From positions 32,001 through 96,000 of the IMG/VR virus record IMGVR_UViG_3300020170_000001: DNA of 64,000 bases. The stretch is one strand, 5' to 3'. The notes beneath the pieces were generated by a model. The model ran no database searches. It was not told the DNA's origin and saw nothing but the letters and a program-made list of their open reading frames with translations. The DNA is from a virus. A program made the position numbers and the translations under genes. Shown piece after piece: positions 8,264 through 54,800 of this stretch. How positions within the stretch are numbered: position 1 is the stretch's first letter; the number at the start of each line of letters is the position of its first letter.

Positions 8264-8464
8264 CTACTTGGCGGCCGGCGTATCAAACTGCGCCACGAGC
8301 AGCGGGGCGATGTGGCTCTCCGGGTAACGACGGTGCCCGCCCGGCGTTTTGATGCTGAGGATCTTGCCGGCCAACGCCCAGCGGGTCACCGTCTTCGGAT
8401 CGACCGCAAACCGCTCGGCAACCTCGCGAGGCGTCAGCAACTTATCCTTCTTCTGCTGTGTCAT
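8264..8464 (-). CDS. bldC: BldC-family MerR-like HTH regulator
   Basis: LLTPREVAERFAVDPKTVTRWALAGKILSIKTPGGHRRY closely matches the BldC core as recalled (LLTPAEVATMFRVDPKTVTRWAKAGKLTSIRTLGGHRRY). Confidence 0.85.
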   Translation of the reverse strand: MTQQKKDKLLTPREVAERFAVDPKTVTRWALAGKILSIKTPGGHRRYPESHIAPLLVAQFDTPAAK

Positions 8465-11262: not shown

Positions 11263-11459
11263 AGCTGACCCACTTCCGCGCCGACCGCGGAAACGACCTC
11301 GGACCAGAAGACCTTGACGGCGGTTGCCGCGGCGTGCCGCATGTTCTCCTCAACGCCGGGCGCGATCGCTGCGACGATTTTGTTGGCGATCTTCTCGGTG
11401 TCCTCGTCGCTCATCTGGAACTCGTCGCGCAGGATCTTCTCGATGCTGTCTTTAATCAT
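11259..11459 (-). CDS. Hypothetical protein
   Basis: 66-aa ORF coupled to both neighbours. Confidence 0.6.
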   Translation of the reverse strand: MIKDSIEKILRDEFQMSDEDTEKIANKIVAAIAPGVEENMRHAAATAVKVFWSEVVSAVGAEVGQL

Positions 11460-12147
11460 TGCTCTCTCGATGTTGGACGGCGAGGATCATTCCGGCGTGC
11501 ACGGCAAGCACGGCCCTGGCGTGCAACTGGCTGGCGCGGCTCTCGGAGATGCCCATCGCTTTGGCGACCTCCTGTAGTTGGAGGCCCTTGAAGTAATGCA
11601 GGCTCAGCACAACTTGCTGGTCCGGTTCGAGGTCTCGGATGGTGCCCACGACGGTGTCCAGGACTTCGGAGGTGAAGGCGTCGGATTCGACGCCCCGCCC
11701 GGAGACCGGGTCCAACTCCTCAGCTTCCAGCGACACCGGGCGTTGCGCCATGCCGCGGATCGTGTTGCGGACCTCTTGGACGCTCATCCCGGAACGCTCG
11801 GCAAGCTCCTTCTCGGACAGACCCTTCTCCTGGCCTGCTTCCTGCAACGCTTTCGCCCGGGTCCGCAGGCTGCGGGTGGCCCAGTCGCTGGAGCGGATGG
11901 CGTCGATCAGCGCGCCGTTGACACGCTGCACAACGAACGGCCGGAAGAACTGCAACGCCAGCGGGTCGAAGTTCTTCTCAGCGCAATAGGTCTCCCACCT
12001 GCGGGCGGCGCTGACCAGGCCGAGGTAGGCGATGCCGGTCAGCTCATCCAGTTCCAGCGCGTGTGGGGCTCTGCGCCAGGTCTGCCGGGCGAGTGACTGT
12101 GACAGGCCCATGTACTGGTGAATGAGGACGTCGGCATCGACTGCCAT
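11452..12147 (-). CDS. FliA/WhiG-family (sigma-28) RNA polymerase sigma factor
   Basis: ELDELTGIAYLGLV, GALIDAIRSSDWATRSLR (cf. WhiG/FliA DWxPRS), and region 4 LQEVAKAMGISESRASQLH; ATG at 12147. Confidence 0.88.
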   Translation of the reverse strand: MAVDADVLIHQYMGLSQSLARQTWRRAPHALELDELTGIAYLGLVSAARRWETYCAEKNFDPLALQFFRPFVVQRVNGALIDAIRSSDWATRSLRTRAKALQEAGQEKGLSEKELAERSGMSVQEVRNTIRGMAQRPVSLEAEELDPVSGRGVESDAFTSEVLDTVVGTIRDLEPDQQVVLSLHYFKGLQLQEVAKAMGISESRASQLHARAVLAVHAGMILAVQHRESND

Positions 12148-12458
12148 TACATCACTTTCCGGTTGATCCGCTTGTAGCCCAGCTCGGCGTATTTCCGCTC
12201 CTCGAAGGAGTACCGGCGCAGGATGGCGTAGGGTACCCGGCCCATCAGCATCCGGTAGTGCCCGAGGAGATCGTGGATGTTGTAGTGGCCGGTAGCGCAG
12301 GCGACGATGATGTTGTCCTCGATATCGGGGCCGCCATCGCCGAGCGGCCACACATGGTGGCGGTGGTTGACGTGGGTCTCCGGCATATGCCGGGCGTGCA
12401 GTTGGCACGGCTGCGTCGTCGCCCGAATGTGTGTGTGCGGGTCTGTTTCATTGGCCAT
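12147..12458 (-). CDS. HNH endonuclease-like protein
   Basis: HHVWPLGDGGPD...NIIVACATGHYNIH. Confidence 0.8.
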   Translation of the reverse strand: MANETDPHTHIRATTQPCQLHARHMPETHVNHRHHVWPLGDGGPDIEDNIIVACATGHYNIHDLLGHYRMLMGRVPYAILRRYSFEERKYAELGYKRINRKVM

Positions 12459-12472
12459 GGGTCACCCTTGTC

Positions 12473-14134
12473 CTATCTCGATCGCCCGATCAGGTTCAGC
12501 AGCTGCAATGGCGAGAGCGCCTCATACAGCTGATTGGTTTCGTTCCACACGGCGTCGGCGATCGCCTGTTCGGTACACAAGGTTTCCAAATAGTGTTCCT
12601 CTTGGGTGCCGACCGTGAAGAGGTTGTGCACGTAGACCGCCCGGTGAGCGGAGCCGTCGCGGCGGATACGCCCGACCAGCTGCTGCATGCGGGCCGGGTT
12701 GAGCAGCTGGTCGACGTTGATCAGGTGGCGCGACACCTGAAGGTTCAGCGACGCTTCCATCGCGGCGGTGCCGATCAGTACCCGGCATTCGGGGTCGTCC
12801 CAGAACTGCTGCTGGGCGGCCCGGCGAGCGCTGGCCCGGTTCTCCCGGCCCCAGATCAGAGCGTGCCGGACACCGCGGCGGGTCAGTCGCTTACTGAGGG
12901 CGTCGACCGCGTTGGTGAATTGGCAGAACACCACGACCTTTTCGTCGGACAGGTCCCCGTCGACCAGCGTGTTCTCGGCCCAGTCGAGCTTGCTGCTCGT
13001 GCGGGGCAGGTCGGGTTCGCCGAGGGTGGCCAGGCCGGAGCAGATCATCGCGCCGTAGACGAACCGGGCGACGGCCGCGAGCCGCTTGACCTGGACGCTT
13101 TCTTCTTTGATGACTTTGAGGACGCCCGCGCGCAGCTGCTCGTACTTCTCGGCCTGCGCCGGGTAGAGGTCGAGGAAGATGTCGTTCGGCGGCATGATCT
13201 CGGGCAGATCGACGTCGTCGACGTGCGCGGCGGTCCTACGCAGGGTCATGGGGGCGAGCTTGCGAACGAAGTCGTCGATGTTCTTGTAGCCGAGCGTCTT
13301 CTTGGTGACGACCTCGCGGCCCAGGGAACGGTTGTAGACGTTGACGAGTTCGGTCCGTTCGTAGGTCCGCCGGAAATTGGTCTCGGATCCGAATACGGCG
13401 AATCCGCCGACCGGCTCCAGCATGGAGTGCAGCTCCCGGAGGCGCTTCTGCAGCGGGGTCGCGTTGAGTTCGATGACGCGGGGGCTGCGCCGGGCGAGGC
13501 GTTTGATCACGGCGGCGGATTGGTTCTTGCGGTTGCGCAGGGCGTCGACGTCGTCGATGACGACCGCGCCGAGAGTGAAATGTTCGAAGTGCTCGTGGTC
13601 GCGCATGAGCATCTGGTATCCGGTGACCAGGATGTCCCAGCCGGCGACATACTTGTCGATCCGTTTGCTCAGGGGGCCGGTGGCATCGACAACGACGAGC
13701 TTCGGCAGGAACCGCATCAGCTCTGCGCGCCATTGGTCGATGGCGGCCGGCCGGCAGATCACGATGACGCGCTTGCCGCCGTCGAGCTCGCCCGACTGTT
13801 TGATCATCGCGAGTAGTCCGGCGGCCTGGCCGGTCTTGCCCAGTCCGACTTGGTCGGCGATCAAGCCTTTGCCGCGCATGTAAAGCCAGGCAATCCCGAC
13901 GCGCTGGTGTTTACGGAATTTGATGCCGCAACGCCGGCACGGGCTGGGCGCTTGGCGAAGTCCCTCATCGAGGGTGGCATGGCTGGGGCACGGGCTGGAG
14001 TTGAACCATTCGAGCTCTGGCAGGGCGAAGTCGCCCAGGGTGCGGATCTTGTCGGCGGCAGCCAGGCGCGTCTGCTCGGGCAGGTCGCGGGCGTCGACGA
14101 AGTGATTCACGGCATCTCTACATGGATGCGCCAC
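12473..14134 (-). CDS. SNF2-family helicase/translocase
   Basis: LIADQVGLGKT, IDDVD, NATPLQ, KVVVFCQF, SLNLQ, QLVGRIRR. Confidence 0.88.
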   Translation of the reverse strand: MAHPCRDAVNHFVDARDLPEQTRLAAADKIRTLGDFALPELEWFNSSPCPSHATLDEGLRQAPSPCRRCGIKFRKHQRVGIAWLYMRGKGLIADQVGLGKTGQAAGLLAMIKQSGELDGGKRVIVICRPAAIDQWRAELMRFLPKLVVVDATGPLSKRIDKYVAGWDILVTGYQMLMRDHEHFEHFTLGAVVIDDVDALRNRKNQSAAVIKRLARRSPRVIELNATPLQKRLRELHSMLEPVGGFAVFGSETNFRRTYERTELVNVYNRSLGREVVTKKTLGYKNIDDFVRKLAPMTLRRTAAHVDDVDLPEIMPPNDIFLDLYPAQAEKYEQLRAGVLKVIKEESVQVKRLAAVARFVYGAMICSGLATLGEPDLPRTSSKLDWAENTLVDGDLSDEKVVVFCQFTNAVDALSKRLTRRGVRHALIWGRENRASARRAAQQQFWDDPECRVLIGTAAMEASLNLQVSRHLINVDQLLNPARMQQLVGRIRRDGSAHRAVYVHNLFTVGTQEEHYLETLCTEQAIADAVWNETNQLYEALSPLQLLNLIGRSR

Positions 14135-14378
14135 CTCGATCCGGCGCAGCCGCGCGGGCGTCCCGGCGGGCCTGCCAGACTTCCCTCTTGCGGGTGATGG
14201 TGACTGCGGCGCGGGCCATCTGCACGGCGTAGGAGACGTCGGTCTGGAATGCTTCCATGGCCTGCTCGATGTGGTGCCGGAAAGCGACCGTGTCGACCGG
14301 GTTGGCCGTGCGTCGGGGCCGTCGCCGAAACAGCGGGGTGAGCTCGTCGAGTCGCACGTCGCTGATTGTTTGGGTCAT
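14118..14378 (-). CDS. Hypothetical protein
   Basis: 86-aa ORF coupled to its neighbours. Confidence 0.55.
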   Translation of the reverse strand: MTQTISDVRLDELTPLFRRRPRRTANPVDTVAFRHHIEQAMEAFQTDVSYAVQMARAAVTITRKREVWQARRDARAAAPDRGGASM

Positions 14379-14740
14379 CAGCCGATGTCCTGCGGGACGT
14401 TGGGGGCCTTGTGTTTCGCGCTGGGAACCAGGACGGGGATTGCCGCCGAGTTGGTGTTGTCGACGGCCTTGAGGGTGTCCTTGGTGAGGCTAGCTCCCGA
14501 GCCTACAGACAGTCCGTAAAAGACCAGCGACCAGAATCCGAGGGTGTGCAGATTCATGTCGCCGATCGTGATGCCGTCCGCCCATGCGGTCTGGGCGACC
14601 AGGAGCACGACAACGACGCCGGCCAGCCAACTGAAGAGTTGAGTAAGAACGCCGTTACGGTCGCCGGCGCGTACGTAACGGAGAAAGTCAATTATTTTCA
14701 GGGTCAGGGCGGCCATGGCAACCACAGGCAGGAAGTCCAT
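14378..14740 (-). CDS. Holin-like membrane protein
   Basis: 120 aa with about three hydrophobic segments, at the end of the tail operon. Confidence 0.55.
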   Translation of the reverse strand: MDFLPVVAMAALTLKIIDFLRYVRAGDRNGVLTQLFSWLAGVVVVLLVAQTAWADGITIGDMNLHTLGFWSLVFYGLSVGSGASLTKDTLKAVDNTNSAAIPVLVPSAKHKAPNVPQDIG

Positions 14741-32293: not shown

Positions 32294-32974
32294 TTAGGCT
32301 TGGCTCAGCGACGGCAGGCGCGGTGCCGAGCGCTGCTTTCGGCGTTTCTCCGCGGCTGCCAACTCCTGCTCCGACGGCGGCGCGATGCGGCCCTCGCCGC
32401 GCTCGACGCGCAGGATCTCGAAGTTCCCGTCCGAGTAGGACTTCCCGGGCCACGGCCCGCTGCGAAACATGACCGTGCCGAATCGCTCCACCTGGGCGAA
32501 GTCGTTGTCGCGCAGGTCCAGCCAGGTTTTGCCGCGCCGGTCGAAGGTGTCGCGGTAGGCTTGCGAGCCGACTTCGAATTCGAGTTCGTCGCCGCGATAC
32601 CAGATCCGTCCGAGCGCGGTCAGGCCATCTCCCAGGAAATGAATCAGAATGTTCCTCTGATCTCCGGGCTCCTGCACTTCCTCGACGACGGGCTCGACGT
32701 CTTTGCTGCCGGAGAGCCGGGCGATCTGATCGCGCAGGGCCTTGATCTCTTGCTGCTCCGGAGTCATCTCGTCGTCGACCAGGGCCTTCTCATCCGGCGG
32801 GGCCGGGGTCAGGTCGACGGGAAGATCAGCCTCCGGAATTTCGTCCGCGGCGGACGTGTCGATCCGATCGAACTGGTCCAGGGCGCTACCGGCCACGGGC
32901 GTCTCGGCCGCCGACTTCGCGGGGCCGACGGCACGGGGCTGACGCTTGCCACTGGCGGGTACTCCTCGGGGCAT
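32294..32974 (-). CDS. Hypothetical protein of the head-tail region
   Basis: 226-aa ORF with an acidic N-terminus and a short coiled coil. Confidence 0.65.
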   Translation of the reverse strand: MPRGVPASGKRQPRAVGPAKSAAETPVAGSALDQFDRIDTSAADEIPEADLPVDLTPAPPDEKALVDDEMTPEQQEIKALRDQIARLSGSKDVEPVVEEVQEPGDQRNILIHFLGDGLTALGRIWYRGDELEFEVGSQAYRDTFDRRGKTWLDLRDNDFAQVERFGTVMFRSGPWPGKSYSDGNFEILRVERGEGRIAPPSEQELAAAEKRRKQRSAPRLPSLSQA

Positions 32975-37928: not shown

Positions 37929-37977
37929 CAGCCAGTCACCGCCCTTTCGCGTTGACCTATCGGTCCGAGCAGGACCG

Positions 37978-38182: not shown

Positions 38183-40240
38183 TCACACTCCTGAGTCGAC
38201 GAAGAAGCCGTAGGTGGAGGCCGGGCCGGCGAACCGTACGTAGGTTTTGCCTCCGGCGGTGACCGTGTCGCCGGCCACCGAGGCCACCAGGCTGCACACC
38301 GTCCCGTACAACAGCCCCCGGATGGCGTCCGGCCAGTTGATGACCGTGCGGGCGGAGCCAATCGGCACCCGCGACAGGCTGCACGGGTTGCCGTACAACG
38401 GCGCGGTGGTCGAGGTCGGCGTGTACGCCCCCGGGCTAATGGCGTTGGTGCCGCCCAAGTTGTTGTAGCAGTAACCGTTATGGATGCGGGCCTCGAAGTT
38501 CAAGAGCACCGACAACGTCTGCAGCGGCTCCCGGGTGAACCCGCCGACCTGCAGCAGGCTGTTGCTACCGATGGCCCAGGCATTGGTCTGGGCGGTCGGG
38601 AACTGCGCGGCCACCAGCGGCTGGCCCGTCGTGCCCGCCGGGAGCAAGTCCTCGTACAGGCCTGCGTAGAACCCCATCTCGGAAGCCGCCTTCACCCCGA
38701 GGATCACCCGGTCCGGGGTCGCGCTGAACCAGTAGGTGAACGGCGACCCGGCCGCGAGCGTAACTGAGGCTGGGCCCGCATGAGCCTGATCCGCGAGGGT
38801 AGCGACGTCCGGGTTGAGGTAGGTGCCGGTGACCGGAATCCCGCCCAGACCGCGCCCGCCGAAGTTGCTGGCCTTGTGTGTGCTCGTGTCGTAGGCTTCG
38901 GCGACCTGATAGAAGATCGTGTTGGCTGCTTCCGAGGCGCGGCGCAGGATCAGGTACCAGTCCGTGCCAGACGTATTCGACGCGCCGGGACTCTTGTAGA
39001 CATCCGCGCAGGGGCTGGCCGACGTGCCGGGCATGTTCCGCGAGGTCCAGGTGATTCCATCCGACGAGGTCGCGGTGACGGTGGAGGTGCTGGTCGCGAC
39101 GAGCTGGCCGCCCGCGTAGACCGGCTGATTCCAGCTGATGCTCACCGGCAGGGTCCGGGCGGTCCAGGTGATCCCGTCCGGCGAGGACAGAGCGACCGTG
39201 CCCGTGGTGTTGCACACCACCCAGACGCTGCCGGTGTAGACCGGCGGGTACCAGTTGCCGCTGACGGGCAGGGTTCGCTGGGTCCAGGTGATCCCGTCAG
39301 TAGAAGTCACCGCGACCGTGCCCGAAGCGGTGACCACCACCCAGATGCCGCCGGCATAGACCGGCGGTTGCCAGCCTGAGGCGGTGGGCAGGGTCCGCGA
39401 GGTCCAGGTAATGCCGTCCGGCGAGGTGTTAATCGTGGCAGAAGCGGAGTTGTTCATCAGAACCCACAGGTTGCTGCCGTTATGGACCGGCAAGTACCAG
39501 GCCATGCCAGACGTGGCCAGGGTCCGCTGTGTCCAGGTCACCCCGTCGGGCGAGGTCGCGGCGACGGTGGAGGCTGCGGTGTTGATCGCGATATACACGC
39601 TGCCGTTGTAGGCCAACTGCAGCCAGCTGGTACTGACTGGCAGGGTCCGCGCGGTCCAGGTGATCCCGTCGGACGAGGTCAGCACGTTGGTGCCCGCGTT
39701 GTTGATCGACAGGAACTGCCCGCCCGCGTAAATCGGCTGAATCCAGGTTGTGCTGACCGGCAGGGTCCGCTGGGTCCAGGTCACCCCGTCCGGCGAGCTC
39801 AAGGCGACGTTGCCCACGGTGTTGAATACGACCCAGATGCCGCCGCCGTACACCGGCAGCCGCCAGGTGCCCGTGGTGGGTAGAGTCCGCTGGGTCCAGG
39901 TGATCCCGTCAGTCGAGGTCGCGGCGACTGTTCCTGAGGTGTTGAGCACCAGCCAGGTGCCGCCGCCATAGACCGCCTGCATCCAGAAGGATGCGGGGGT
40001 GGGAAGGCTCCGCTGGGTCCAGGTGAACCCGTCGGGCGAGGTCGCCACCGAGGTCGATGAGTTGATGGTCGAGACCACATACAGGTTGTTGGCGTACGTG
40101 GGCATCTGCCAGTTCGGGCCGGCGGGGCTGCTGAAGGTCTCCACGAAGGTGAGCCCGGCCGGGACCAGGGCCGTGTTCAGCGCCGCCATCAGATCCTTGG
40201 CAGGCAGGGCGCTGTTGATCGACGCCGTCGAATAACTCAT
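38183..40240 (-). CDS. Asp-box/BNR-repeat beta-propeller virion protein
   Basis: Nine SxDGxTWTxRxLP repeats of about 39 aa; ATG at 40240. Confidence 0.8.
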   Translation of the reverse strand: MSYSTASINSALPAKDLMAALNTALVPAGLTFVETFSSPAGPNWQMPTYANNLYVVSTINSSTSVATSPDGFTWTQRSLPTPASFWMQAVYGGGTWLVLNTSGTVAATSTDGITWTQRTLPTTGTWRLPVYGGGIWVVFNTVGNVALSSPDGVTWTQRTLPVSTTWIQPIYAGGQFLSINNAGTNVLTSSDGITWTARTLPVSTSWLQLAYNGSVYIAINTAASTVAATSPDGVTWTQRTLATSGMAWYLPVHNGSNLWVLMNNSASATINTSPDGITWTSRTLPTASGWQPPVYAGGIWVVVTASGTVAVTSTDGITWTQRTLPVSGNWYPPVYTGSVWVVCNTTGTVALSSPDGITWTARTLPVSISWNQPVYAGGQLVATSTSTVTATSSDGITWTSRNMPGTSASPCADVYKSPGASNTSGTDWYLILRRASEAANTIFYQVAEAYDTSTHKASNFGGRGLGGIPVTGTYLNPDVATLADQAHAGPASVTLAAGSPFTYWFSATPDRVILGVKAASEMGFYAGLYEDLLPAGTTGQPLVAAQFPTAQTNAWAIGSNSLLQVGGFTREPLQTLSVLLNFEARIHNGYCYNNLGGTNAISPGAYTPTSTTAPLYGNPCSLSRVPIGSARTVINWPDAIRGLLYGTVCSLVASVAGDTVTAGGKTYVRFAGPASTYGFFVDSGV
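39030..40090 (-). repeat. Nine coding tandem repeats of about 117 bp (Asp-box)
   Basis: Recurrent ggtccaggtgatcccgtc-like words on the + strand. Confidence 0.85.
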
Positions 40241-40698
40241 CCGAACTTCTCCACTCGCAGATTCGACAGCGTGAATACCCGGACGCTTGGTCCGGTGTTG
40301 CGGATCCCGACGAACAGGTCCTGCCCGGCGGCGTCGTTTTCGAGATACCAGGGCACGGGGTTGGAGTAGCTGGCGGTGGTGATCCCGATCGCCTGCAGCC
40401 ACAAGGTGCCCGAGGTGTTGCCGGCTCCGCGGACTTCCAGGTCGAAGGAGCCGGCCGCGTCTACCGTGACCGTGATGAGGCTGACCAGGCCTCGCGCGGC
40501 GATGGACGGCACGGTGTAGTAGGTGAAGGCCGTCTGGCTGCCGGACTGGGTGCCCAGCGTCACGGCTGTCGCGGTGACCTTGCTCGGCCCGACGCCAACA
40601 GCCCACTGGTAGTCGAAGTCGACGGTGGACTTCTTCTGCAGAAACCACCCGGTCGTGCCGCCAGGCGGCACGCGAGAACCCGATCCCACTGACGGCAT
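40237..40698 (-). CDS. Structural protein sharing the GGTTG..L.K.S..D.D..W motif
   Basis: PPGGTTGWFLQKKSTVDFDYQW at the N-terminus. Confidence 0.65.
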   Translation of the reverse strand: MPSVGSGSRVPPGGTTGWFLQKKSTVDFDYQWAVGVGPSKVTATAVTLGTQSGSQTAFTYYTVPSIAARGLVSLITVTVDAAGSFDLEVRGAGNTSGTLWLQAIGITTASYSNPVPWYLENDAAGQDLFVGIRNTGPSVRVFTLSNLRVEKFG

Positions 40699-40717: not shown

Positions 40718-42262
40718 TCAGCCGACGATGACGCAGCGGTATTGGCCGGAGGTCGGCGCGGCCCCGAAGACCAGGGCGACGTTGTTGGCGTCGGTGCGCT
40801 GGACTTCGGCGTAGACGGTGTCGTAGGGGGCGGCGGCGGAGTACACCTCGACGTGCACGTCGCGGGTGTTCAGGTTGTGGTTGATCGTGATGGTGGTGGC
40901 GACGCCGTCGCCGAGCGACGCGGCGAACCGGCGGGCGACGACCGCGGTGTCGATGGCGATGTTGGCACCGACCACGATGCCCAGACCGGCAACGGCCTTG
41001 ACACCGGGCACGCCGACCGCGAGGCCGCCGGACGGGTCGAGAACCGTGCTGACCCCGGCTGCGGCGACCGCGATGCCGGAGTTCGGCTTGGGCACGACGG
41101 CCAGGCCGGTTGCGCTGGTCGCGAGACCGCCGGCCGGGTCGGTGGTGATGCCGACGCCGGTGACGTCGACGTCGAGGCCGTCGTTGGGCCGCAGCACCAC
41201 GCTGACGCCGGTGGCGTCGACGCCGATGCCGGTGTTCGGCTTGGGCACCACACCGACCCCGGCGGCGTCGACCGATAGGCCGCCGGTCGGGCGGGGCACC
41301 ACGTACAGGCCGGTCGCGTCGGTGATCAGGCCGCTGATCGCGGGCAGTTTCGCCGCGATGCCGCTTACGCCGACCTGCAGACCTCCGGTGCCGGTGGCGA
41401 CCGCCACAACGCCGGTCGCGCCGACGGTGACACCGTTGCCGGGCAGGACCTGCAAGCCGGTGGCATCAACGGTGAGGCCCTTGTTCGGGGCCAGCACCGT
41501 CTGCACGCCGGTGGCGTCGACGGCGAGGCCGGCGCTCGGCTTGATGGTGACGCCGGCACCGTTGGCGTCGGTGTCGAGGCCGTAGTTGGGGCGCGGGACG
41601 AACTTGAGGCCGTTGGTGTCCTCGAAGAGTCCGGCGTTCGCGACGAGCTTGACCGCGACGCCGTTGGTCCCGACGTTCAGGCCTCCGGTGGGATCGGCGA
41701 TCACGCCGATGCCGGAGCCGGTCACGGCGACGCCGCTGTTCGGGGCCGGGACCGCGGTGACGACGTGGTTGGTGATGTCGACGCCGTTGCCGGCGGTGTA
41801 GATCGGCGAGGTGCCAGCGTTTAGCAGCGCCCACTGAATCGCCGTGGTGCCGATGCTGATCGGCCCATCGGTGATCAGCACGTAGGTGTGGTTGCCGCTG
41901 GCGGTGCCCTCGGAGACGGTGACGGCCGTGCCGGGCCGCAGCTCGGCGTTGGTGTCGGCGTCAGCGGAGCGGGTCAGCGCGGTGCCGGTGAAGTCGTAGA
42001 TGCCGTTCTCGATGGGGTTGGTCTGCCCCATGAGCAGGACGCGGTCGTTGGCGGCGAGGGTGACCCCGTCGATGGCCACGCCGGGCGCGCCGACGGTGAC
42101 GTTGGCGGACGCTGCGACCCGGACGGCGTCCTTCCAGATCAGACCAGTCGCGATGTTGTCGACATACTGCTTGGTAACCGCGTCGGTGCTGACGGCCGGA
42201 GCGCCCAGGTTGGTGATGCGGTTGAGCTTGAGGTCGAGAAGCTGGGTATAGGTAATTGCCAT
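40718..42262 (-). CDS. Fibre protein, large partner 2, with a 17-aa repeat shaft
   Basis: NLGAP..STDAVTKQYVD, WKDAVRV...IDGVT...NGIY domain, about 16 repeats, C-terminal INHNLNT domain. Confidence 0.75.
   Translation of the reverse strand: MAITYTQLLDLKLNRITNLGAPAVSTDAVTKQYVDNIATGLIWKDAVRVAASANVTVGAPGVAIDGVTLAANDRVLLMGQTNPIENGIYDFTGTALTRSADADTNAELRPGTAVTVSEGTASGNHTYVLITDGPISIGTTAIQWALLNAGTSPIYTAGNGVDITNHVVTAVPAPNSGVAVTGSGIGVIADPTGGLNVGTNGVAVKLVANAGLFEDTNGLKFVPRPNYGLDTDANGAGVTIKPSAGLAVDATGVQTVLAPNKGLTVDATGLQVLPGNGVTVGATGVVAVATGTGGLQVGVSGIAAKLPAISGLITDATGLYVVPRPTGGLSVDAAGVGVVPKPNTGIGVDATGVSVVLRPNDGLDVDVTGVGITTDPAGGLATSATGLAVVPKPNSGIAVAAAGVSTVLDPSGGLAVGVPGVKAVAGLGIVVGANIAIDTAVVARRFAASLGDGVATTITINHNLNTRDVHVEVYSAAAPYDTVYAEVQRTDANNVALVFGAAPTSGQYRCVIVG
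40950..41780 (-). repeat. About 16 coding repeats of about 51 bp (beta-spiral-like shaft)
   Basis: Repeats such as GVVPKPNTGIGVDATGV, SVVLRPNDGLDVDVTGV, QTVLAPNKGLTVDATGL. Confidence 0.8.
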
Positions 42263-42274
42263 TTCGGGCGTCTC

Positions 42275-42742
42275 CTAGGGCCGCAGGTATGCCGTGCCGG
42301 TATATGGCGCGCTATGCACAACCACAGTCGTCTGGTCACTCGGGTGATGGATTTCTGCGATCATTTCCTGACCGCCGCTGTCCAAAAGGATCACGTTCGG
42401 GATCAGGCTCATGTGGTGGTCGATGACCCACTGCGCAGCCGGAACCGTCTGATGGTGGGTGAAGGAGATGCCCCCGCCGACAGCAACGCTCTGAATCTCG
42501 TCTTCGAGTTGCCGGGCGGTGTTTTCCCACTCGTATTGGAATCCGCGTCCGCCGCCTGCGGTCGGATCGGTGACATCGAGATCGGTCGTGCGGATCAGCG
42601 CGGCCCCGCGGATCTCCTTCTCCTCCGCTGCTGTCGAGAGCAGTGGGAAGGGAGCGCGCTGGGTCTTACGCAGCAATGGCCGGCGGGCACGATTCGACTG
42701 CCGCTCGTCGGACGGCTGGGAGGTGCTGTCGGCCCCTGACAC
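42275..42742 (-). CDS. Fibre/decoration-like protein, upstream partner 2
   Basis: C-terminal HHQTVPAAQWVIDH...TGTAYL domain. Confidence 0.65.
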   Translation of the reverse strand: MSGADSTSQPSDERQSNRARRPLLRKTQRAPFPLLSTAAEEKEIRGAALIRTTDLDVTDPTAGGGRGFQYEWENTARQLEDEIQSVAVGGGISFTHHQTVPAAQWVIDHHMSLIPNVILLDSGGQEMIAEIHHPSDQTTVVVHSAPYTGTAYLRP

Positions 42743-42777
42743 GACCTACTACATCGGAAGGAGTCCGTGAGGACGGG

Positions 42778-42996
42778 CTATTCCTTGTTGCCGCTCAGCA
42801 GCGCAATGACCTCACGCAGCGACGCGATCTGTGCGTCGTGCAGCCGTAGTTGGGTTTGCATCTGATCCTGCACCGACCGCAGAACGTCGATCTGATCGAC
42901 CAACGATTTTCTGGTCTGGGTGATGTCCCTTTCGGCGCTCAGGTCTTGCAGGTTGCTCAGCACCTCTGACAGCCTTTCCGCCGGTTCAGCGGCCAC
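42778..42996 (-). CDS. Small coiled-coil protein
   Basis: Heptad-rich 72 aa, overlapping the upstream gene. Confidence 0.65.
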   Translation of the reverse strand: MAAEPAERLSEVLSNLQDLSAERDITQTRKSLVDQIDVLRSVQDQMQTQLRLHDAQIASLREVIALLSGNKE

Positions 42997-43300
42997 GACG
43001 TTTCGCCTCCGCCCGGTGCATCGCTGTGCGCAGCAGGAACCAGAATCCGAGAACGAACCACACTACCGCGATGGCTTGAATGGTGTGATTGAGAACCATC
43101 CACTCCGAGTGTTGGAACCCGAAGGCCATCGACAGGTGAGTGATGGCGCAGGTGACGAAGAAGAACGAGCCGGCGAGCCGGACGGATCGCGAGAGCGGCA
43201 GGTAGCGCAGCACCGTGAATGGGACCACGCAGTAGCCGGCGACGATGACCAGATTGGAGACGACGTTAAGTACCACCCAGTGCGGATCTCCCGGGATCAT
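42986..43300 (-). CDS. Three-TM membrane protein resembling the ETR1-type ethylene-binding domain
   Basis: SNLVIVAGYCVVP (N16, Y23, P27) and FFFVTCAITHL (C51, H55) reproduce the ETR1 D25/Y32/P36 and C65/H69 spacing; ATG at 43300. Confidence 0.7.
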   Translation of the reverse strand: MIPGDPHWVVLNVVSNLVIVAGYCVVPFTVLRYLPLSRSVRLAGSFFFVTCAITHLSMAFGFQHSEWMVLNHTIQAIAVVWFVLGFWFLLRTAMHRAEAKRRGR

Positions 43301-43302
43301 CG

Positions 43303-43821
43303 TCAGCGGCCCTGCAGAGCGGGGCCGCCCGGGTAGAGGCGCTGCATGCATTCCAGGAATTTCTCGCCCTTGGGATCGGTCGACAACGGGTTGGTACGCG
43401 CGCAGTAGAACCCGACCAGGTTGTACTGCTTGACCTGATCCAGGAGTTGGTTCTGCAGGATGGCGTTCCGCTTGCCGCACTCACCGGTCGAATTCACACA
43501 GTCCAACAGCAGGGAGTTGAGCCTGCTGACTTGTTCCTCCTGCTTCTGCGTCGCCGAAATGTTAACCGCGTTAACAATCGCGAGCGTCAGCAGAATGACC
43601 ATCGCGCCGCCCACGAGGTAGGTGAGCCACCGGGTCTGGCGGTTGTTTTTCTCCAGCACGTCGATCTTCCGATCGCGGGCCTCGGTCTCTCGGCGCACGT
43701 GCTCCACTAGCGCCACCATGGTCTTGTTGGATTCGTGGTTCGCCGCAACAAGTTCCTCGACCGCGAGCGCACTGTGCAGGCGGCTGGCCTTCTCGTCGGC
43801 TGTCTCGCCCAGACCGGTCAT
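43303..43821 (-). CDS. Single-pass membrane protein with a coiled coil and a 4-Cys C-terminal domain
   Basis: TM WLTYLVGGAMVILLTLAIVNAV; four Cys downstream. Confidence 0.75.
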   Translation of the reverse strand: MTGLGETADEKASRLHSALAVEELVAANHESNKTMVALVEHVRRETEARDRKIDVLEKNNRQTRWLTYLVGGAMVILLTLAIVNAVNISATQKQEEQVSRLNSLLLDCVNSTGECGKRNAILQNQLLDQVKQYNLVGFYCARTNPLSTDPKGEKFLECMQRLYPGGPALQGR

Positions 43822-43967
43822 CGCTCCACGCCCTTCAACTCATCCCGGAGTCGCCTGATGAGCTCCTCCTGCCGTTGCAGAATCCGGTCGTGTTCCTGAA
43901 CGGCGCGCTGCAACTCCGCGAGAACGTCCTCAGTGTCTGTCTCAACACGACGCTCAGTGGCCGCCAT
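43818..43967 (-). CDS. Small coiled-coil protein (49 aa)
   Basis: ATG at 43967; VLAELQRAVQEHDRILQRQEELIRRLRDEL; overlaps both neighbours. Confidence 0.6.
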   Translation of the reverse strand: MAATERRVETDTEDVLAELQRAVQEHDRILQRQEELIRRLRDELKGVER

Positions 43968-44358
43968 CGCGATCGCCCCCTCCAGGCGGGCCGACTTCCG
44001 CTGCACGTCCACGGCGAGGACCGCTGGGTGGATTGCCCTTATCCTGACGGAGGATGCTGTCACGTATTTTCATTTCGGTAATGAGTTGGATCGCCTCTTC
44101 CAGAACGTCGGCTACCTGCTTGTGCAGCAGGGCCGCTTCGACCTGCTTCGGCAGCAACTCGTTGCGAATGAATTCGTTCAGCTCCTTGGCTTGTTGCGCG
44201 GCCTGGTCGCTTTTCTCGCGTTCCCGAGCGATGGACCCACGGGTATACATGATCATCAGGGCGGCGAAGATGCCCAGGACCCCGTACTGCAGGAGCGCGC
44301 CGACCGGATCTGTGGCGCTCGGGGAACTGGCCAGAACCAGGTCCTCGATGCGCAGCAT
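43954..44358 (-). CDS. Membrane protein with a coiled-coil tail (holin-like)
   Basis: TM ALLQYGVLGIFAALMIMY followed by a charged coiled coil. Confidence 0.7.
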   Translation of the reverse strand: MLRIEDLVLASSPSATDPVGALLQYGVLGIFAALMIMYTRGSIAREREKSDQAAQQAKELNEFIRNELLPKQVEAALLHKQVADVLEEAIQLITEMKIRDSILRQDKGNPPSGPRRGRAAEVGPPGGGDRDGGH

Positions 44359-44387
44359 GACAATCCCTATCGGATCGCAGAATAGGC

Positions 44388-44421
44388 GCAGCCTCCGCCC
44401 ACTCGGGAGGGCGGAGGCTGC
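44388..44421 (-). terminator. Hairpin after the major capsid gene
   Basis: 13-bp inverted repeat GCAGCCTCCGCCC / GGGCGGAGGCTGC. Confidence 0.7.
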
Positions 44422-44436: not shown

Positions 44437-45438
44437 TTACGGCACGGTCACGTCAGCGACGAAGATCATCTGCTCGGGCCGGGTGATGACCGGCATGATG
44501 TTCCACTCCAGCAGGTACTGCCGGGCGGACGGGTCCTTGTCGATCCAGCTCTTGGAGAACTTTCCGGTGAAGTTGTCCGGGGCCTCTTCGTCGGCGGTCG
44601 GACCGACGTACATTTCGATCGGCCGCTGGTCGGTGTAGTTGCCCATGTAGAGCGCGTTGTCCGGAACGAACAGGGTGTTGTTGCCGGCGTCGTCGTCGTA
44701 GATCGTTTCGATGGTGTTCCAGTTCATGCCCATGAAGCCCGGCAGCGTCCCGCTGGCGAAGTACTGGTCCTTCATCCGGTCGGACATCAGGATCGAGGCG
44801 TTCGCGCCGTGGGAGGCGAACGAGTCGAAGATGTACGCCATGGTCAGTTCGGTGACGTAGCTGTCCTTGGCCTCGACCCGGCCGTCGCGGCGGATGAGGC
44901 GCTTGAAGGCGCGGATGTCGCCGACGATCTGCTGCGGCGTCGCGGTGTTCCAGCCGACCGTGACGGTGGGCTTGTGCGAGGCCGGGAATTGATAGTCGAC
45001 GTTGGCCTGCACGTCGGGGAAGTCGTAGGTGATGCTGCCCTTCAGGGCCGCCCACAGCAGGAACTCGCCGAAGTTGTCGAACCGCTGGTTGAGGTCGTTG
45101 ACCTCGCGGAGCACCGCCTGCTCGGCGTTGGTCTGGGCGAGCTGGCCGGGCTGGCGCAGCCAGTGCAGGGTGGTCGGCGAGAAGACCTTCTTCTCGCGCA
45201 GGTAGACGAACGCGGCGCTGGCCTGCGAACGGCCGAGCCGGGGCACGATGTGTGCCTCGCTGTTGGGCACGTTCGGCTTCGCGACCATGCGGGAGCCCTT
45301 GATGACATCCCAGGTGACCGAGGGGAACGGCCACGGGGTCTGCGGAACCTGGCTGAGCATCGTCAGGGTTTCCGGAGTGGTGAATTTCTCGACCACGCCC
45401 CGAAGGACCGTGGGTTCGAGAAGCGAAATCTGAGGCAC
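44437..45438 (-). CDS. Major capsid protein (lambda gpE-like family)
   Basis: 333 aa with highly biased codon usage; follows the scaffold and decoration genes; VDYQFP and C-terminal MPVITRP motifs. Confidence 0.85.
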   Translation of the reverse strand: MPQISLLEPTVLRGVVEKFTTPETLTMLSQVPQTPWPFPSVTWDVIKGSRMVAKPNVPNSEAHIVPRLGRSQASAAFVYLREKKVFSPTTLHWLRQPGQLAQTNAEQAVLREVNDLNQRFDNFGEFLLWAALKGSITYDFPDVQANVDYQFPASHKPTVTVGWNTATPQQIVGDIRAFKRLIRRDGRVEAKDSYVTELTMAYIFDSFASHGANASILMSDRMKDQYFASGTLPGFMGMNWNTIETIYDDDAGNNTLFVPDNALYMGNYTDQRPIEMYVGPTADEEAPDNFTGKFSKSWIDKDPSARQYLLEWNIMPVITRPEQMIFVADVTVP

Positions 45439-47200: not shown

Positions 47201-47251
47201 GTTCGAACCTCCCTGAATCACCGTCCTTAATCGGACGGGCCCGGGAGGTGT

Positions 47252-51875: not shown

Positions 51876-54800
51876 CTATCGGAATTCGCCTACGGGGACG
51901 TAAAGACTATTCGTCCAAACCCGACGAACGTTCGCAACTCCGAATGGCAATTCGGCGGCCGGCCCGGTGCTGAAGGTGTCGGGCTCGTAATAGCGGCGCT
52001 CGCCGGAGCCTTCCTCCCGACCGCCGAGCCGAACCGAGGTCATGGCGACGCAGGCGAGAGCGTCTGCCAGGTCCTTGCTGCCATCCGCCGGGTGGTCAAC
52101 CCGTCCGTTCGGCAGCCGCGAGAGCGCCAGCAGTTCCTCGCGGAGCAGGAACGGGGCAGCTTTTGCTTCCAGTTCCGGCACCGAGAGCCGAGGGATCTCG
52201 ATACGACCTTCGTAAATCAAATCGCGAAGGTTGCGCCAGGGCTCTTCCGACATGTCCGTGGAGATCTTCTCGCAGCCGATCCCCCGGGATTCAAGGATCT
52301 GCATGCTGTCTTGGCTCTGAAAACTGTCGAACGTGAACAGCCGGATGTTGAACCCACGGCGGATCAGCTCGAAGCACAGCTGCCGCGCCCAGCGGATCTG
52401 AATCTCACGAGGAGGTTCGGCCGAGGAATCCGCAGAGTAGGAGATGACGAAGTCGACCTTGACCTTGGGTCGGACTTCCCGCACGACATACGGTGCGCCG
52501 TCCTCGTCTTCCGTGACGGTCTCGTGCTCGGCGTAGTCGATGACGTGCGCCATGGCCAGCCCGGCCCGGTCCCCGCTGACCGCGAGGTCGGCGTGCATGG
52601 TGTAGATGGCACCGCGGACGGGGAACAGGGTGTCGGCGAAGGTGTAGTACGGCGTCCACACTCGCCGCTGCGTGCGCTCGCTTTTCTCCATGGTGTAGCC
52701 GACGCTCAACGGCTCACTTTTGAGCATCACGAATGCGGAGTCGACGGCTTGGACGTTGCGGAAGTAGGGGTTGATGGCGCGGGCGGGCCGACACTCGTAC
52801 TTGGCCCGGGCCATGATGGGATCTTCGCGGTAATCCTCGGCGAAGGCCTCCCGGCCGGGAACGCGCGGGTTGACCTCCCAGGTCGCCATCGGACCGGAGA
52901 CGTAGTGTCGCGACAGTTGACCGCGCTCGTTGAAGTCTTCCCGGGCCGCGTCGGTCAGTTGCTGGATCGTCGAGCCCAGGTAGCGGGGGTACGAGATGCG
53001 GACGTTCTTGAAGACTTCCGGGAACCTCGTGCTTGACGACGTCCGCATCATGTTGAGGATGCCCTCGGCGGACTTCGTGGGCTCGCGCGCCGACGAGCCC
53101 TTGCGGAATTGCATCTCCTTCTTGGACTTGAAGGCGTCGATCTCGTCGGCGATGGCAAGTAGGAGGTTGAGGCCTTCCTGGGTCTCGGCGTCAGAGTGCC
53201 CGGAGACCGACTCGATGTTCTTCTTGTAACTGACCGTGTTGAGCCGCGGCGTGCACTTGTCGGCGAACCAGCCCTTTTTCGCGGCCCGGACGATGGGCAT
53301 GAAGAATGCCTGCTGCGCCTGCGCAGAACTGGAAGCGACGTTGAGCAGATGGATGGTGTCCTGTTCGGGCATGCCGTAATAGATCTGCGGCGATTGCAGG
53401 CACAGCAGCAGGTAGGCGATACGCATCGACGCTACTCGACAGATGTGATCTTTTCCGGAGTTGGAATTGATAAACGCCGATGTCCCGGCCGCATACGTGC
53501 CGGCTCCTGGAACATGAACGTCCCAGTAGTCCTGGTCGCCCAGTGGTTCAATGCTGACCACCTGGTCCCAATAGACATCGCCGGCCATAACTTGCTGACG
53601 GCGCAGCGGAACGTGCTCCAGCATCTCAACACGGCGGCGCTCTTTCTCACCGTGCAACGTGAGCACCGCAAGCAGCCGCTTCAGATGTTGATCGGCCTGA
53701 ACCTCCACGCGCCAGGCCCTACGCCCCTCTCGACGCTCACCCTTGTAGACATAGGAGGACACCTTGCTCGTCAGTCGGGCAACGACCCCAAATCGCAAAA
53801 GGAGGCGCTGAATATCGCGAGCGAGATCCTCTGAAACAGTGCAGTATTCTGCCCGCGGCTGGCCCTTCGACGAGGAGTACAACGATCCGTCGGTGTCCCA
53901 GAGCCCAGAGATAAAGGTCGCTAGTTGATCATTCGGCAAGGAGAAGAACTCGGGCGGCACCCGCTTATCCCAGGCGCGACTGCCGTAGAGGCCGTACTTG
54001 CGGATAATGTCGAGCAGCGGCGTCTTCGACTTCCTGCCGCGGCCGGGTTGCGTCGCGCGGATACGCATGGTCCCGGACTGCATCGTCTCGCACTTGGCAA
54101 TGATGTCTTCGTAGGACTCGACCAGCTCGATGTACCGGTTGCGCAGGTCATCGGCGACTGGCTTTGAGTCGATGTAGAACGCCCACTGCGGCGAGCCCTC
54201 GACCGGCATGGAACCGTCGCCGATCCAGTAGCCCACGAGTTCGACTTCACGCGGATCCTGCGGGACTGGTTCAAGGCAGTCGAGCTTCGACATCACCGCG
54301 AGACGGTCACCGACTTGGAGCTCGCCGGCTTGCTTCCAGACTGGCTTTGCCAGATCGTAGCGGTCTTTGTAGGGCAGGTTGTGGGTCTCCCAGGAAACGA
54401 ACAGGTGCCCGACATAAACGTCGATGTGCGCGCCGGTTGCGGTTGTGACTCGAACACACTGCCCCCGGCCACGCTTGAATGGGGCACCGTCGGTTTGCGC
54501 CGAGACTCGGTTTTCACCTCGCACCAAAGCAGGCTCGCCGGGCAGGTGTTCCGTGGTCCCGCTCGCGTTGACCGCGTCGATGCCCTGAACCGTCAGGGAC
54601 TCACCGACCCCGCCCACTTGACGCCACTGACCGGACCGGACATCATAGATCGGTACATCGACACATATGCATCCCTTACCCCACTGGAGGGTCGCGAAGT
54701 TGACCATCCGTAGGGGCTGTGACCAGTACTTTTCCTCGCGCCAGACCGCGGAGGCGGAGGCGATGTGGAGCCTTCCTTCGCGTTTCCCGGTCTCGAATTC

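Follow-up and report, generated by a model that had tools for sequence, protein, structure and literature searches.

A five-gene membrane protein cassette behind the capsid gene of an uncultured soil phage, a possible new form of actinophage holin-like gene array

The cassette and its flanking elements

The window analyzed here is a stretch of 64,000 nt (positions 32,001-96,000 of IMGVR_UViG_3300020170_000001) from the 125-kb genome of an uncultured soil phage. Behind its capsid gene lie five small genes, here called A to E, and then a further gene, F (Table 1). The junctions are tight: A and B overlap by 14 nt and B and C by 4 nt, the stop of B overlapping the start of C as ATGA; C and D are separated by 2 nt, D and E overlap by 11 nt, with the GTG of E lying within the end of D, and 35 nt separate E from F. 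The GC3 of all five genes is of the coding type (0.70-0.83), with A, B, and E at 0.70-0.75 and the capsid gene at 0.93. A to E are a real operon, translationally coupled and preceded by its own upstream element. All elements of the original prediction were found where it had placed them on the minus strand, and its series of five overlapping or abutting genes proved to be a tightly packed, recurrent unit. At the DNA level, neither megablast nor blastn matched the cassette to any of 50,697 phage records.

Table 1. Features of the cassette and its borders, in positions of the window
Feature	Position	Strand	Remarks
Capsid gene	44437-45438	minus	Phage_cap_E match, E 7.7e-29
GC-rich hairpin	44388-44421	minus	15 nt past the capsid-gene stop; 15-bp stem, 8-nt loop
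CCGATAG element	44367-44373	minus	CCGAT core ends 10 nt before the ATG of gene A
Gene A	43954-44358	minus	134 aa
Gene B	43818-43967	minus	49 aa from the ATG at 43967
Gene C	43303-43821	minus	172 aa
Gene D	42986-43300	minus	104 aa
Gene E	42778-42996	minus	72 aa, GTG start
CCGATG element	42752-42757	minus	CCGAT core ends 10 nt before the GTG of gene F
Gene F (next gene after the cassette)	42275-42742		GTG start

The hairpin between the capsid gene and A had been read as the terminator of the capsid gene. The structure itself is real: the hairpin region (91 nt) folds at -49.6 kcal/mol (z -4.0), and 0/200 shuffles fold as well. It has no T-run, and a simple terminator scan missed it; it is a candidate terminator or RNA-stabilizing stem. 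GC-rich inverted repeats, located by eye and unfolded, are present at the equivalent site in the related loci L023, L027, L028, L009, L033, L034, and L031.

A CCGAT element precedes both the cassette and F. The second of these, which had been predicted to begin the next unit, marks the downstream border of the cassette; the window and 7/7 relatives (L004, L005, L023, L024, L026, L027, L028) all have it 9-10 nt ahead of F. The same spacing is found before the start of A in the window and in four of the five loci inspected (L023, L024, L027, and L028; not L004), and before the start of D in five of the six loci where D follows the capsid gene. The motif also lies 8-9 nt before the ORFs starting at 51868 and 47221, which we take to be the portal and scaffold/protease genes, and an element shared with structural genes fits late expression of the cassette. 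By count, the CCGATAG 7-mer shows no enrichment across the window (7 found vs. 4.45 expected; 17/100 shuffles reach 7), and CCGAT[ATG] on the minus strand shows only a mild enrichment between genes, with 10/51 copies intergenic where non-coding sequence makes up 9.4% of the DNA (6/51 on the plus strand, for comparison). Among the phage genes is one for a sigma-70-family factor with regions 3 and 4 (window 11452-12408), and the element is a candidate -10-type late promoter for leaderless or near-leaderless mRNA. Sigma-28 (FliA/WhiG)-type promoters combine a -10 element of the GCCGATAA type with a matching -35 and are read by a cognate sigma factor. The upstream contexts inspected share no visible -35, and the element could instead act as a translational signal.

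Predicted products of the five genes

Protein A has a single transmembrane (TM) helix at ~19-37, with ~18 residues before it and basic residues after it, and by the positive-inside rule is predicted to be oriented N-out/C-in with a cytoplasmic tail. This tail is charged and helical (35% DEKRH) and has a Gly/Pro/Arg-rich end. The family counts 93 homologues with a conserved core. A matches phrog_1026 at E 0.036, and one of 22 relatives of A reaches E 0.0093; a tblastn search of 50,697 GenBank phage records gave one marginal match, in an unannotated record.

Protein B is small, charged, and helical, without a TM helix; an alternative reading of 81 aa is open from a GTG at 44063. It was found by tblastn in L004, L005, L023, L024, L025, L027, and L028, with an ORF at the equivalent position. 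Protein E is likewise small and helical, without a TM helix. An E-like ORF of 59-78 aa overlapping the stop of D is present in all six loci with the A-E order (19-59% identity), and tblastn recovered E in L026 only. The coiled-coil label originally given to A, B, and E agrees with their composition and with weak matches to Pfam coiled-coil families. The 72-aa product of E had also been proposed to stand in for the signaling helix that follows the sensing domain in canonical receptors. This idea found no sequence support: E aligned neither with the N-terminal helix of the 4-TM proteins encoded behind D elsewhere (hhalign 4.1%, 18 columns) nor with the tail on the cytoplasmic side of P0159, a longer relative of D (hhalign 0.2%). 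Complex prediction for D and E gave a score of 0.00 in a run without controls, which speaks neither for nor against their binding.

Protein C has a TM helix at ~68-86 and four conserved cysteines (108, 115, 140, 158); among its 43 homologues, C140 and C158 are invariant and C108 and C115 are at least 90% conserved. Its AF2 model (pLDDT 86.7) contains one long helix at 8-109 and further helices at 114-143 and 153-162. The predicted orientation is N-in/C-out, with a cytoplasmic helix and an outside helical domain that is probably held by two disulfides. Distant C-like genes occur in L007 (hhalign 97%) and L045 (88%). The model matched nothing in BFVD at E<=0.001 and only generic long coiled coils among 48,161 chains (VIA-align, Z<=7.7); in the ESM Atlas the best score was 0.83, under the lead level, and a scan of viral contigs with C alone found nothing.

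Protein D is predicted to span the membrane three times. Its AF2 model (pLDDT 89.6) has helices at 6-33, 38-59, and 66-103 and a basic C-tail, and the positive-inside rule suggests an N-out/C-in orientation. Invariant in 27 sequences are Asn16, Tyr23, Pro27, Cys51-x3-His55, His72, and Gln75. D matches the ethylene-receptor family ETR1_N (PF25487) over profile positions 2-95 of 97 with 21.8 bits (E 2.4e-4; 21 bits in a six-frame search), below the 27-bit gathering cut-off, and Got1 matches it with an equal E-value. Among 27 relatives of D, 18 match ETR1_N at E<=0.01 (best 5.3e-5), and seven match Got1 instead or additionally; sub-threshold ETR1_N matches are common, occurring in 6/14 control genomes at E<=0.1. 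The Cys-x3-His of D resembles the copper site of ethylene receptors and may bind metal, and this pair of conserved residues, taken with the sub-threshold match, makes D a putative sensor.

The D family comprises 59 homologues and 129 remote clusters. Of these remote relatives, 110 contain C-x3-H somewhere, 125 are of 200 aa or less, and only one (P0209) carries a receiver domain; many relatives of D have His-rich outside N-termini. In P0145 and P0150, a D-like domain is fused to two more TM helices and a tail with 39-40% charged residues. Foldseek gave no PDB match for the D model at E<=0.001, and the D profile found nothing relevant among PDB sequences; the PDB copy searched holds no solved structure of the ethylene-binding membrane domain. 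A scan of viral contigs with D alone found nothing, and the D alignment retrieved three viral and 20 metagenome loci and zero loci among 185,579 species genomes.

Distribution of the cassette and lysis genes in its relatives

The order A-B-C-D-E-F recurs in six other metagenome loci (L023, L024, L027, and L028, and partly L025 and L026), across which A, C, and D share 49-78% protein identity. As a proxy for lying on the same contig, 18 of the 43 C clusters have a longest contig of exactly the same size as that of a D cluster. Co-conservation of all five genes as a block, which the original prediction would require, was not seen: A-B-C is found without D-E in L004 and L005, and at least eight loci (L020, on the L009 contig, L029, L030, L031, L033, L034, L037, and L038) have D, but not A-C, immediately behind the capsid gene. 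What remains of the self-contained five-gene cassette is a recurrent, packed unit with its own element, whose A-B-C and D(-E) parts are also distributed separately.

A further arrangement involves PAS proteins. In L007, genes for a PAS protein, an A-like protein, one or more coils, and a C-like protein follow the capsid gene, and the complete genome G002 has a PAS-headed A-coil-C set ~39 kb from its capsid gene, beside an exonuclease-like gene and not among late genes. The L007 PAS protein has no tblastn match in the phage's own genome. Magritte, a Microbacterium phage and the closest one with a name (capsid protein 64% identical), and G001 (96% complete) contain neither A nor D; no membrane gene follows the capsid gene in L010, L011, or Magritte, and other membrane genes do so in L006. 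That near-complete relatives do without the cassette marks it as accessory rather than as the core lysis system. C and D have zero homologues in the 50,697 GenBank phage records (tblastn, E<=0.01), so that no annotated or tested relative is known.

In Pfam and PHROGs, none of A-E significantly matches a family of holins, antiholins, or spanins, the best score being that of A against phrog_1026. An endolysin-like gene (PG_binding_1) lies at 13608-14387 of the genome, ~62 kb from the cassette, and a 120-aa ORF with two TM helices (window 14378-14740), directly past the minor-tail genes, is by its position a rival holin candidate. Elsewhere, in at least seven loci, the gene behind D encodes a 4-TM protein and the one after that a 1-TM protein whose tail is long and helical. 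A phrog_9752 holin comes directly after the three genes, D included, in L022 and L039 (E 3.5e-30 and 4.7e-22), which places the D-like gene three genes upstream of a holin, at the lysis-cassette position past the tail genes; L022 also carries an endolysin-like gene. The phrog_9752 holin has no match in the phage's own genome. Homology of the A family to the 1-TM helical proteins behind D elsewhere found no support (hhalign 2.6%).

Possible roles and comparison with known systems

We tentatively favor, at somewhat under even confidence, the reading that the cassette is an accessory module of the host cytoplasmic membrane acting late on the membrane step of lysis. The format of A, the class-I-holin size and topology of D, the holin neighbors in L022 and L039, and the D-like fusions make a membrane or lysis role, as first proposed for these genes, the best-fitting one. 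The module would consist of two sub-modules that also travel separately, A-B-C and D-E. A would be an N-out/C-in single-pass protein with a charged cytoplasmic tail and B a small cytoplasmic helix; C would be a single-pass N-in/C-out protein with its helical domain outside; D would be a holin-sized 3-TM protein with its Cys-x3-His, and E, translated together with D, another small cytoplasmic helix. The parts acting in the membrane would then be A, C, and D, with B and E as regulators or adaptors on the cytoplasmic side, through protein contacts that we infer, and the step affected could be hole formation, its timing, or its restraint. The five products may, as the original prediction had it, form one membrane complex.

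A more specific version is unlikely in our estimation, namely that an A-coil-C core takes interchangeable stand-alone sensors, D(+E) here and PAS in sister phages, and that the phage times lysis by a chemical signal, for instance copper, the redox state, or an unsaturated gas of small size. If true, it would be an actinophage counterpart of lysis inhibition, using receptor domains without a kinase.

The site behind the capsid gene might alternatively be an insertion hot-spot, where two or three unrelated accessory units have stacked by chance without a common complex or function. The separate occurrence of A-B-C (L004, L005) and of D (the eight loci named above) agrees with this, as do the other membrane genes at this site in L006, their absence from L010, L011, and Magritte, and the lower GC3 of A, B, and E than of the capsid gene. 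A chance stack fits poorly with start/stop coupling across all five genes, with an order kept in six other loci that includes an E-like ORF in each, with the relocation of a sensor-type gene together with A, coil, and C as a set in G002, and with the natural fusions of D-like domains to TM and charged-tail parts; we consider it improbable.

We hold similarly low expectations of a membrane module with a role other than lysis, in superinfection exclusion, interference with the host envelope or defense, or copper handling. Such a module would suit the patchy, accessory distribution and the weak match of D to phrog_14464 ("moron ... membrane protein," E 0.0073); the invariant Cys51 and His55 and the His-rich outside N-termini of many relatives would suit metal binding, and a partner in the envelope could be bound by the domain of C that lies outside and is probably held by disulfides. 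Against it stand the upstream element, which is the one found before structural genes and fits late expression, and the D-like and holin-type genes together at the lysis-cassette position in L022 and L039.

That A-E are virion or assembly factors, e.g., membrane-anchored head-assembly or decoration helpers, is very improbable: the cassette does lie between the capsid gene and the fiber-like or decoration-like F/G, G514 matches phrog_2647 "head decoration" (2.4e-68), and the 4-TM neighbor of D in L009 matches phrog_4026 "minor tail protein" (1.3e-16), but three of the five proteins have strong TM helices, Pfam and PHROGs gave no virion-family match for any of the five, as predicted, structural genes are distant from the A-C set of G002, and close relatives build similar capsids without the cassette (capsid proteins 57-76% identical).

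Several membrane proteins of unknown role are involved in the control of actinophage lysis (PMC13056207, PMC9671378), which is only now being dissected. An accessory lysis module of the kind favored here would add a lysis-type membrane set that lies behind the capsid gene in a genome of 125 kb and has a conserved start signal to itself; a modular architecture joining one conserved membrane trio to different sensor-type proteins (PAS or ethylene-receptor-like); and a family of output-less proteins in which the copper ligands of ethylene receptors are retained. Should D bind copper or a gas and shift the timing of lysis, this would be a new environmental input to the phage's final decision and a minimal system for the ethylene-binding fold. 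If not, the cassette is still useful as a marker for a group of soil phages that is widespread.

Lambda S105 and other class I holins have ~100 aa, three TM domains, an N-out/C-in topology, and a charged C-tail. D is alike in size, in its three TM helices and predicted topology, and in its strongly basic short C-tail; it differs in having a single Met start and no dual-start motif, no holin-family match, and no adjacent endolysin. The many invariant polar residues inside the helices of D are unusual for holins.

For the comparison with ethylene receptors we assume a residue correspondence between D and ETR1 that draws on the Pfam match range and on the ETR1 numbering. In Arabidopsis ETR1 the copper ligands are Cys65 and His69 (PMC10266040), and D likewise has three TM helices, Cys-x3-His in helix 2, and a Tyr and Pro in helix 1. 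At the helix-1 position corresponding to ETR1 Asp25, D carries its invariant Asn16; an Asn there is a natural variant in 3.67% of EBDs and has lower affinity (PMC10266040). The helix-3 partner of the acidic Asp25 in ETR1 is Lys91, whereas helix 3 of D (66-90) contains no Lys and has the invariant His72 and Gln75. Ethylene-binding domains bind Cu(I) and ethylene and are coupled to an output domain, which D, at 104 aa, does not have. We found no account in the literature of such output-less proteins with copper-ligand residues in phages, and the available portions of PMC7700396 and PMC6944256 do not mention phages.

The T4 holin T and its antiholins RI (periplasmic) and RIII (cytoplasmic) (PMC8385771, PMC11413866) offer an analogy only. 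The logic would be alike in that C, a predicted bitopic N-in/C-out protein whose outside domain is sizeable, shares its operon with small partners that could act on C from the cytoplasmic side (B and the tail of A) or from outside; both phages also have a large genome and keep these genes far from the endolysin. C differs in having no sequence or fold similarity to the T4 proteins described in these sources, and the host envelope is here of the actinobacterial type.

The closest likeness in format is to LysF1b, a protein of 124 aa with an N-terminal TM domain, N-out/C-in orientation, basic residues past this domain, and a charged helical tail (PMC13056207). LysF1b-type proteins range from 92 to 150 aa with cytoplasmic tails that are 30-50% charged, and fall into 20 phams with minimal mutual identity (PMC13056207); comparable Gordonia phage proteins have 79-145 aa (PMC9671378). 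A fits this format in size, TM domain, and charge, with its orientation given by the positive-inside rule, and shares with the systems of Girr and NormanBulbieJr (PMC13056207) and of Gordonia phages (PMC9671378) the sequence of N-terminal TM helix, basic stretch, and charged tail, even though A has no detectable similarity to GenBank phage proteins apart from its one marginal match. LysF1b-type proteins are encoded in a lysis cassette beside the endolysin and a 2- or 4-TMD partner, and their deletion gives a lysis defect. The present cassette differs in that the endolysin-like gene is not adjacent, the neighbors being the TM partners C and D, and the parts of the two papers available to us describe nothing like B, C, D, or E. 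About 30% of M. smegmatis phages pair a LysF1b-like protein with a 4-TMD protein (PMC13056207), a pairing that the 4-TM and 1-TM proteins behind D in other loci resemble. As in the holin-like arrays of actinophages, A heads a linear array of TM genes with short overlaps such as ATGA, and the cassette may represent a new form of such an array, one with a sensor-type domain.

Layout and surroundings of the cassette

The source viral record comprises 124,652 bases and is judged 93% complete; the window corresponds to its bases 32001-96000 and has a GC content of about 65%. Among named phages, Microbacterium phage Magritte (133 kb) comes closest, with a capsid protein identity of 64%, and neither megablast nor blastn matched the cassette DNA to phage records. 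Genes around the cassette lie on the minus strand. The five cassette genes, A to E, are joined by a 14-nt overlap (A/B), a 4-nt overlap (B/C), a 2-nt gap (C/D) and an 11-nt overlap (D/E), and a 35-nt gap containing CCGATG separates E from the next gene, F (42275-42742, F155). All five show a coding-type base pattern (GC3 0.70-0.83). Hydropathy scans and AF2 models predict a single transmembrane (TM) helix each for A and C and three for D. C carries four Cys; among 30 sequences two of them never vary, and the other two are conserved at 90% or more. No virion family was matched by any of A-E. Based on gene order, TM predictions, Cys conservation and this lack of a virion-family match, the original prediction described the locus correctly: a five-gene layout behind the capsid hairpin, with the coordinates, junctions, TM counts and Cys content all found, and no virion-like protein among the five. 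For A, B and E, "coiled coil" is a tentative label that follows from weak Pfam hits and composition. The hairpin folds at -49.6 kcal/mol in its 91-nt context (z -4.0); it has no T-run and is absent from the list of a simple terminator scan.

Features of the cassette and of the loci compared with it (window positions unless another record is named)
Feature	Position	Strand	Description
Capsid gene	44437-45438	-	Phage_cap_E, E 7.7e-29
Hairpin behind capsid gene	44388-44421	-	15-bp stem, 8-nt loop
CCGATAG element	44367-44373	-	between hairpin and gene A
Gene A		-	134 aa; first of five cassette genes
Gene B	ATG 43967; GTG 44063	-	49 aa from ATG; 81 aa from GTG
Gene C		-	172 aa; third cassette gene
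Gene D		-	104 aa; fourth cassette gene
Gene E		-	72 aa; last cassette gene
CCGAT[ATG] copies near starts of four late genes	51877-51882, 47229-47234, 44368-44373, 42752-42757	-
Sigma-70-family protein	11452-12408	-	Sigma70_r4 E 2e-12, plus region 3
2-TM ORF	14378-14740	-	120 aa; directly after minor-tail genes, before DNA helicase gene
Endolysin-like gene	G000:C1:13608-14387 (L019:4608-5387), own genome, outside window	-	259 aa; C-terminal PG_binding_1 E 6.3e-10
Stand-alone PAS_4 proteins	L007:7158-7583; L045:959-1489 (relatives' loci)		head A-like, coil, C-like sets

The homologue of Magritte gp23, which is close behind the capsid gene in other relatives, lies about 11.7 kb further on here (32378-32758, minus strand), so that the cassette, F, G, H and a repeat protein all fall within an expanded variable block. 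G514 (40718-42262, minus strand) combines glycine-rich repeats with an N-terminal phrog_2647 domain ("head decoration", 2.4e-68) and a C-terminal domain that is conserved; segments of G514 occur twice more in the genome (G000:C1:89487-89963 and 68179-68847), and F155 has PHROG families in common with its C-terminal part. The block that separates the capsid gene from the head-tail connector genes also holds an 821-aa ORF (38183-40648, minus strand), which contains about a dozen "SPDGITWT.RTLP"-type repeat units and is beta-propeller-like in appearance.

Two separable sub-modules

Scanning by tblastn of the 15 loci found through the capsid protein (14 viral contigs and Magritte) detected A in three, B in two, C in two, D in one, E in none and F in five. 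In L004 and L005, which are the closest relatives (capsid identity 82-83%), F follows A-B-C immediately, without D-E. Among the 23 loci found through D, six keep the gene order of the window, four of them complete (L023, L024, L027, L028) and two cut by the contig end (L025, L026); in all six the D stop is overlapped by an E-like ORF of 59-78 aa, which has 19-59% identity to E and is detectable by tblastn in L026 only. In eight loci A-C is absent and D comes immediately after the capsid gene (L020, from the L009 contig, L029, L030, L031, L033, L034, L037, L038); one locus has D facing the capsid gene (L021), and eight contain no capsid gene inside the examined stretch. As a proxy for co-occurrence, the longest source contig of 18 of the 43 C clusters is identical in size to that of one of the 59 D clusters. 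Neither A nor D is present in Magritte or in the relative's genome G001 (96% complete). These distributions (A-B-C without D-E, D without A-C, and the joint order in six loci) establish A-B-C and D-E as two sub-modules, often joined in fixed order yet separable, and the cassette is an accessory module. The self-contained unit originally proposed is thus supported in part: its order is kept in six D-found loci, and its two halves are separable.

In the relative's locus L007, the capsid gene is followed first by a gene for a stand-alone PAS protein (PAS_4 at 32.8 bits, cut-off 23.1). Next come an A-like gene (tblastn E 2e-7) and a pair of small helical ORFs, and then a C-like gene whose four Cys align with those of C (hhalign 97%, E 8e-11). 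In the complete genome G002 (137.6 kb), no membrane gene follows the capsid gene; about 39 kb away, adjoining an exonuclease-like gene, lie a PAS protein with 58% identity to that of L007, an A-like gene (E 3.2e-20), a helix of 63 aa and a gene resembling C (hhalign 88%). These arrangements indicate that the A-coil-C set moves as a block and has D or a PAS protein as its sensor-type partner. No tblastn match to the L007 PAS protein was found in the phage's own genome.

Gene D and the ethylene-binding domain

D covers nearly the entire profile of the ethylene-binding domain ETR1_N (PF25487) at 21.8 bits, below the cut-off of 27, and Got1 scores equally; among 27 relatives of D, 18 match ETR1_N at E<=0.01 and seven match Got1. 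The score alone proves little, because sub-threshold ETR1_N matches are present in six of 14 control genomes. At the level of residues, a link to ETR1_N is supported by the invariant pattern: helix 1 has Asn16, Tyr23, Val26 and Pro27, and helix 2 has Phe48 and Cys51-x3-His55. In published work on ETR1, copper is held by Cys65 and His69, Asp25 is 93.55% conserved with Asn as a natural variant (3.67%) of lower affinity, and Lys91 of helix 3 partners Asp25; D has Asn at the Asp25 position, and its helix 3 lacks the Lys and has instead invariant His72 and Gln75 (PMC10266040). D is thus a diverged, output-less relative or a look-alike of the ethylene-binding domain. The portions of the literature covered yielded no published account of ETR1-like proteins in phages, and no solved structure is similar to the D model.

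Most remote relatives of D from a profile search are short (125 of 129 have at most 200 aa). P0145 and P0150 have the D-like part fused to two more TM helices and a tail of 81-131 aa, 39-40% charged, and P0209 (293 aa) has an N-terminal response-regulator receiver domain. Another, P0183 (506 aa), is fused to an IMPDH/GMP-reductase domain; like the receiver domain of P0209, this is a cellular domain. D also resembles class I holins in its size and number of helices, in its predicted N-out/C-in topology and in having a basic tail. A membrane-permeability role for the ethylene-binding fold is not far-fetched, given the cation-channel activity of rice ethylene receptors reported in a 2026 paper (PMC13261662).

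Proposed late expression and relation to known lysis systems

The 7-mer CCGATAG is not enriched in the window (7 observed vs 4.45 expected), and CCGAT[ATG] on the coding strand shows mild intergenic enrichment (10 of 51 copies in the 9.4% of DNA that is non-coding; opposite strand, 6 of 51). This hexamer ends 7-9 nt upstream of four starts in the window: that of A, that of F, and two more at 51868 and 47221, whose ORFs we take to be portal and scaffold/protease. Further intergenic copies lie 28-43 nt upstream of starts at 37958, 33002, 29015 and 8497. In relatives, the distance from the core to the start codon is 9-10 nt for A in four of the five loci inspected (L023, L024, L027, L028; not L004). 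It is likewise 9-10 nt for F in the window and 7/7 relatives, and for D in five of the six loci with D immediately behind the capsid gene. Between loci, core and spacing are constant and flanks variable; by eye, GC-rich inverted repeats immediately precede the core in relatives. The position of the hexamer before four late-gene starts suggests leaderless late mRNAs, and the simplest reading is a -10-type late promoter yielding them. No common -35 element was seen in the CCGAT contexts, and the core may possibly be a translational signal. The window also encodes a sigma-70-family protein; a 66-aa MerR/HTH_17-type protein is encoded near its gene (8264-8464, minus strand).

In at least seven loci (L009/L020, L022, L034, L035, L036, L039, L040), the gene after D encodes a 4-TM protein of about 180-217 aa, and the next one a protein of about 145-172 aa in which a single N-terminal TM precedes a long helical tail. 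This trio is located after tail-type genes in L022 and L039, directly followed by a 2-TM protein of the holin family phrog_9752 (E 3.5e-30 and 4.7e-22, respectively), and L022 also has an endolysin-like gene with PG_binding_1. The phage's own genome has no phrog_9752 holin; its 120-aa 2-TM ORF is a holin candidate by position, with no Pfam or PHROG family match. Its endolysin-like gene also matches PHROG endolysin families, the N-terminal catalytic part having no family match, and sits among replication genes (RecA, DNA polymerase) about 62 kb from the cassette; the Magritte endolysin is likewise far from the structural genes. Just past the window end (G000:C1:96220-97217, minus strand) lie two adjacent genes reminiscent of a spanin pair. 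The product of one (158 aa) contains two Cys and has a single TM close to its N-terminus; the product of the other (174 aa) carries a lipoprotein-like signal, its hydrophobic stretch ending before a Cys.

We tentatively propose, at slightly less than even odds, that the cassette is a late-expressed membrane module acting in host lysis. Its late transcription would begin at a CCGAT-type start of its own. The positive-inside rule predicts an N-out/C-in orientation for A and D and an N-in/C-out one for C, whose Cys domain would thus lie outside; B, E, the A tail and residues 1-65 of C would all be cytoplasmic helices and could bundle. A lesion formed or restrained by the membrane parts would collapse the membrane potential, whereupon the distant endolysin would act. 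This step could be coupled to a cue through D or, in sister phages, through the PAS protein. The original interpretation of the cassette as a sensor-controlled lysis module is partly supported.

The closest parallel in format is LysF1b, an actinophage lysis protein with one TM domain (TMD). As described by Pollenz and co-workers, LysF1b of mycobacteriophages Girr and NormanBulbieJr has 124 aa and is N-out/C-in: 22 residues outside precede its one N-terminal TMD, which leads into basic residues and an extended charged helical tail; its gene has an ATGA overlap with the upstream gene, and its deletion causes a severe lysis defect (PMC13056207). About 80% of M. smegmatis phages have a LysF1b-like protein, with minimal identity to one another, and about 30% pair it with a 4-TMD partner (same source). 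The TM-gene arrays of Gordonia phages likewise include 1-TM proteins that share this topology and have 79-145 aa (PMC9671378). A matches the LysF1b format (134 aa, about 18 residues outside, TM 19-37, tail 35% charged), and the "4-TM plus 1-TM" pair after D elsewhere fits the published pairing (PMC13056207). The resemblance of A is one of format: A has no significant match in GenBank phages and no detectable relationship to the 1-TM proteins following D elsewhere (hhalign 2.6%). The D29 homologue of LysF1b, encoded downstream of the tape-measure gene according to a 2026 preprint, provides a precedent for lysis proteins among structural genes. The cassette would be best filed among the multi-gene holin-like arrays of actinophages, where its location, its modular build and its sensor-type, putative copper-site protein are unusual.
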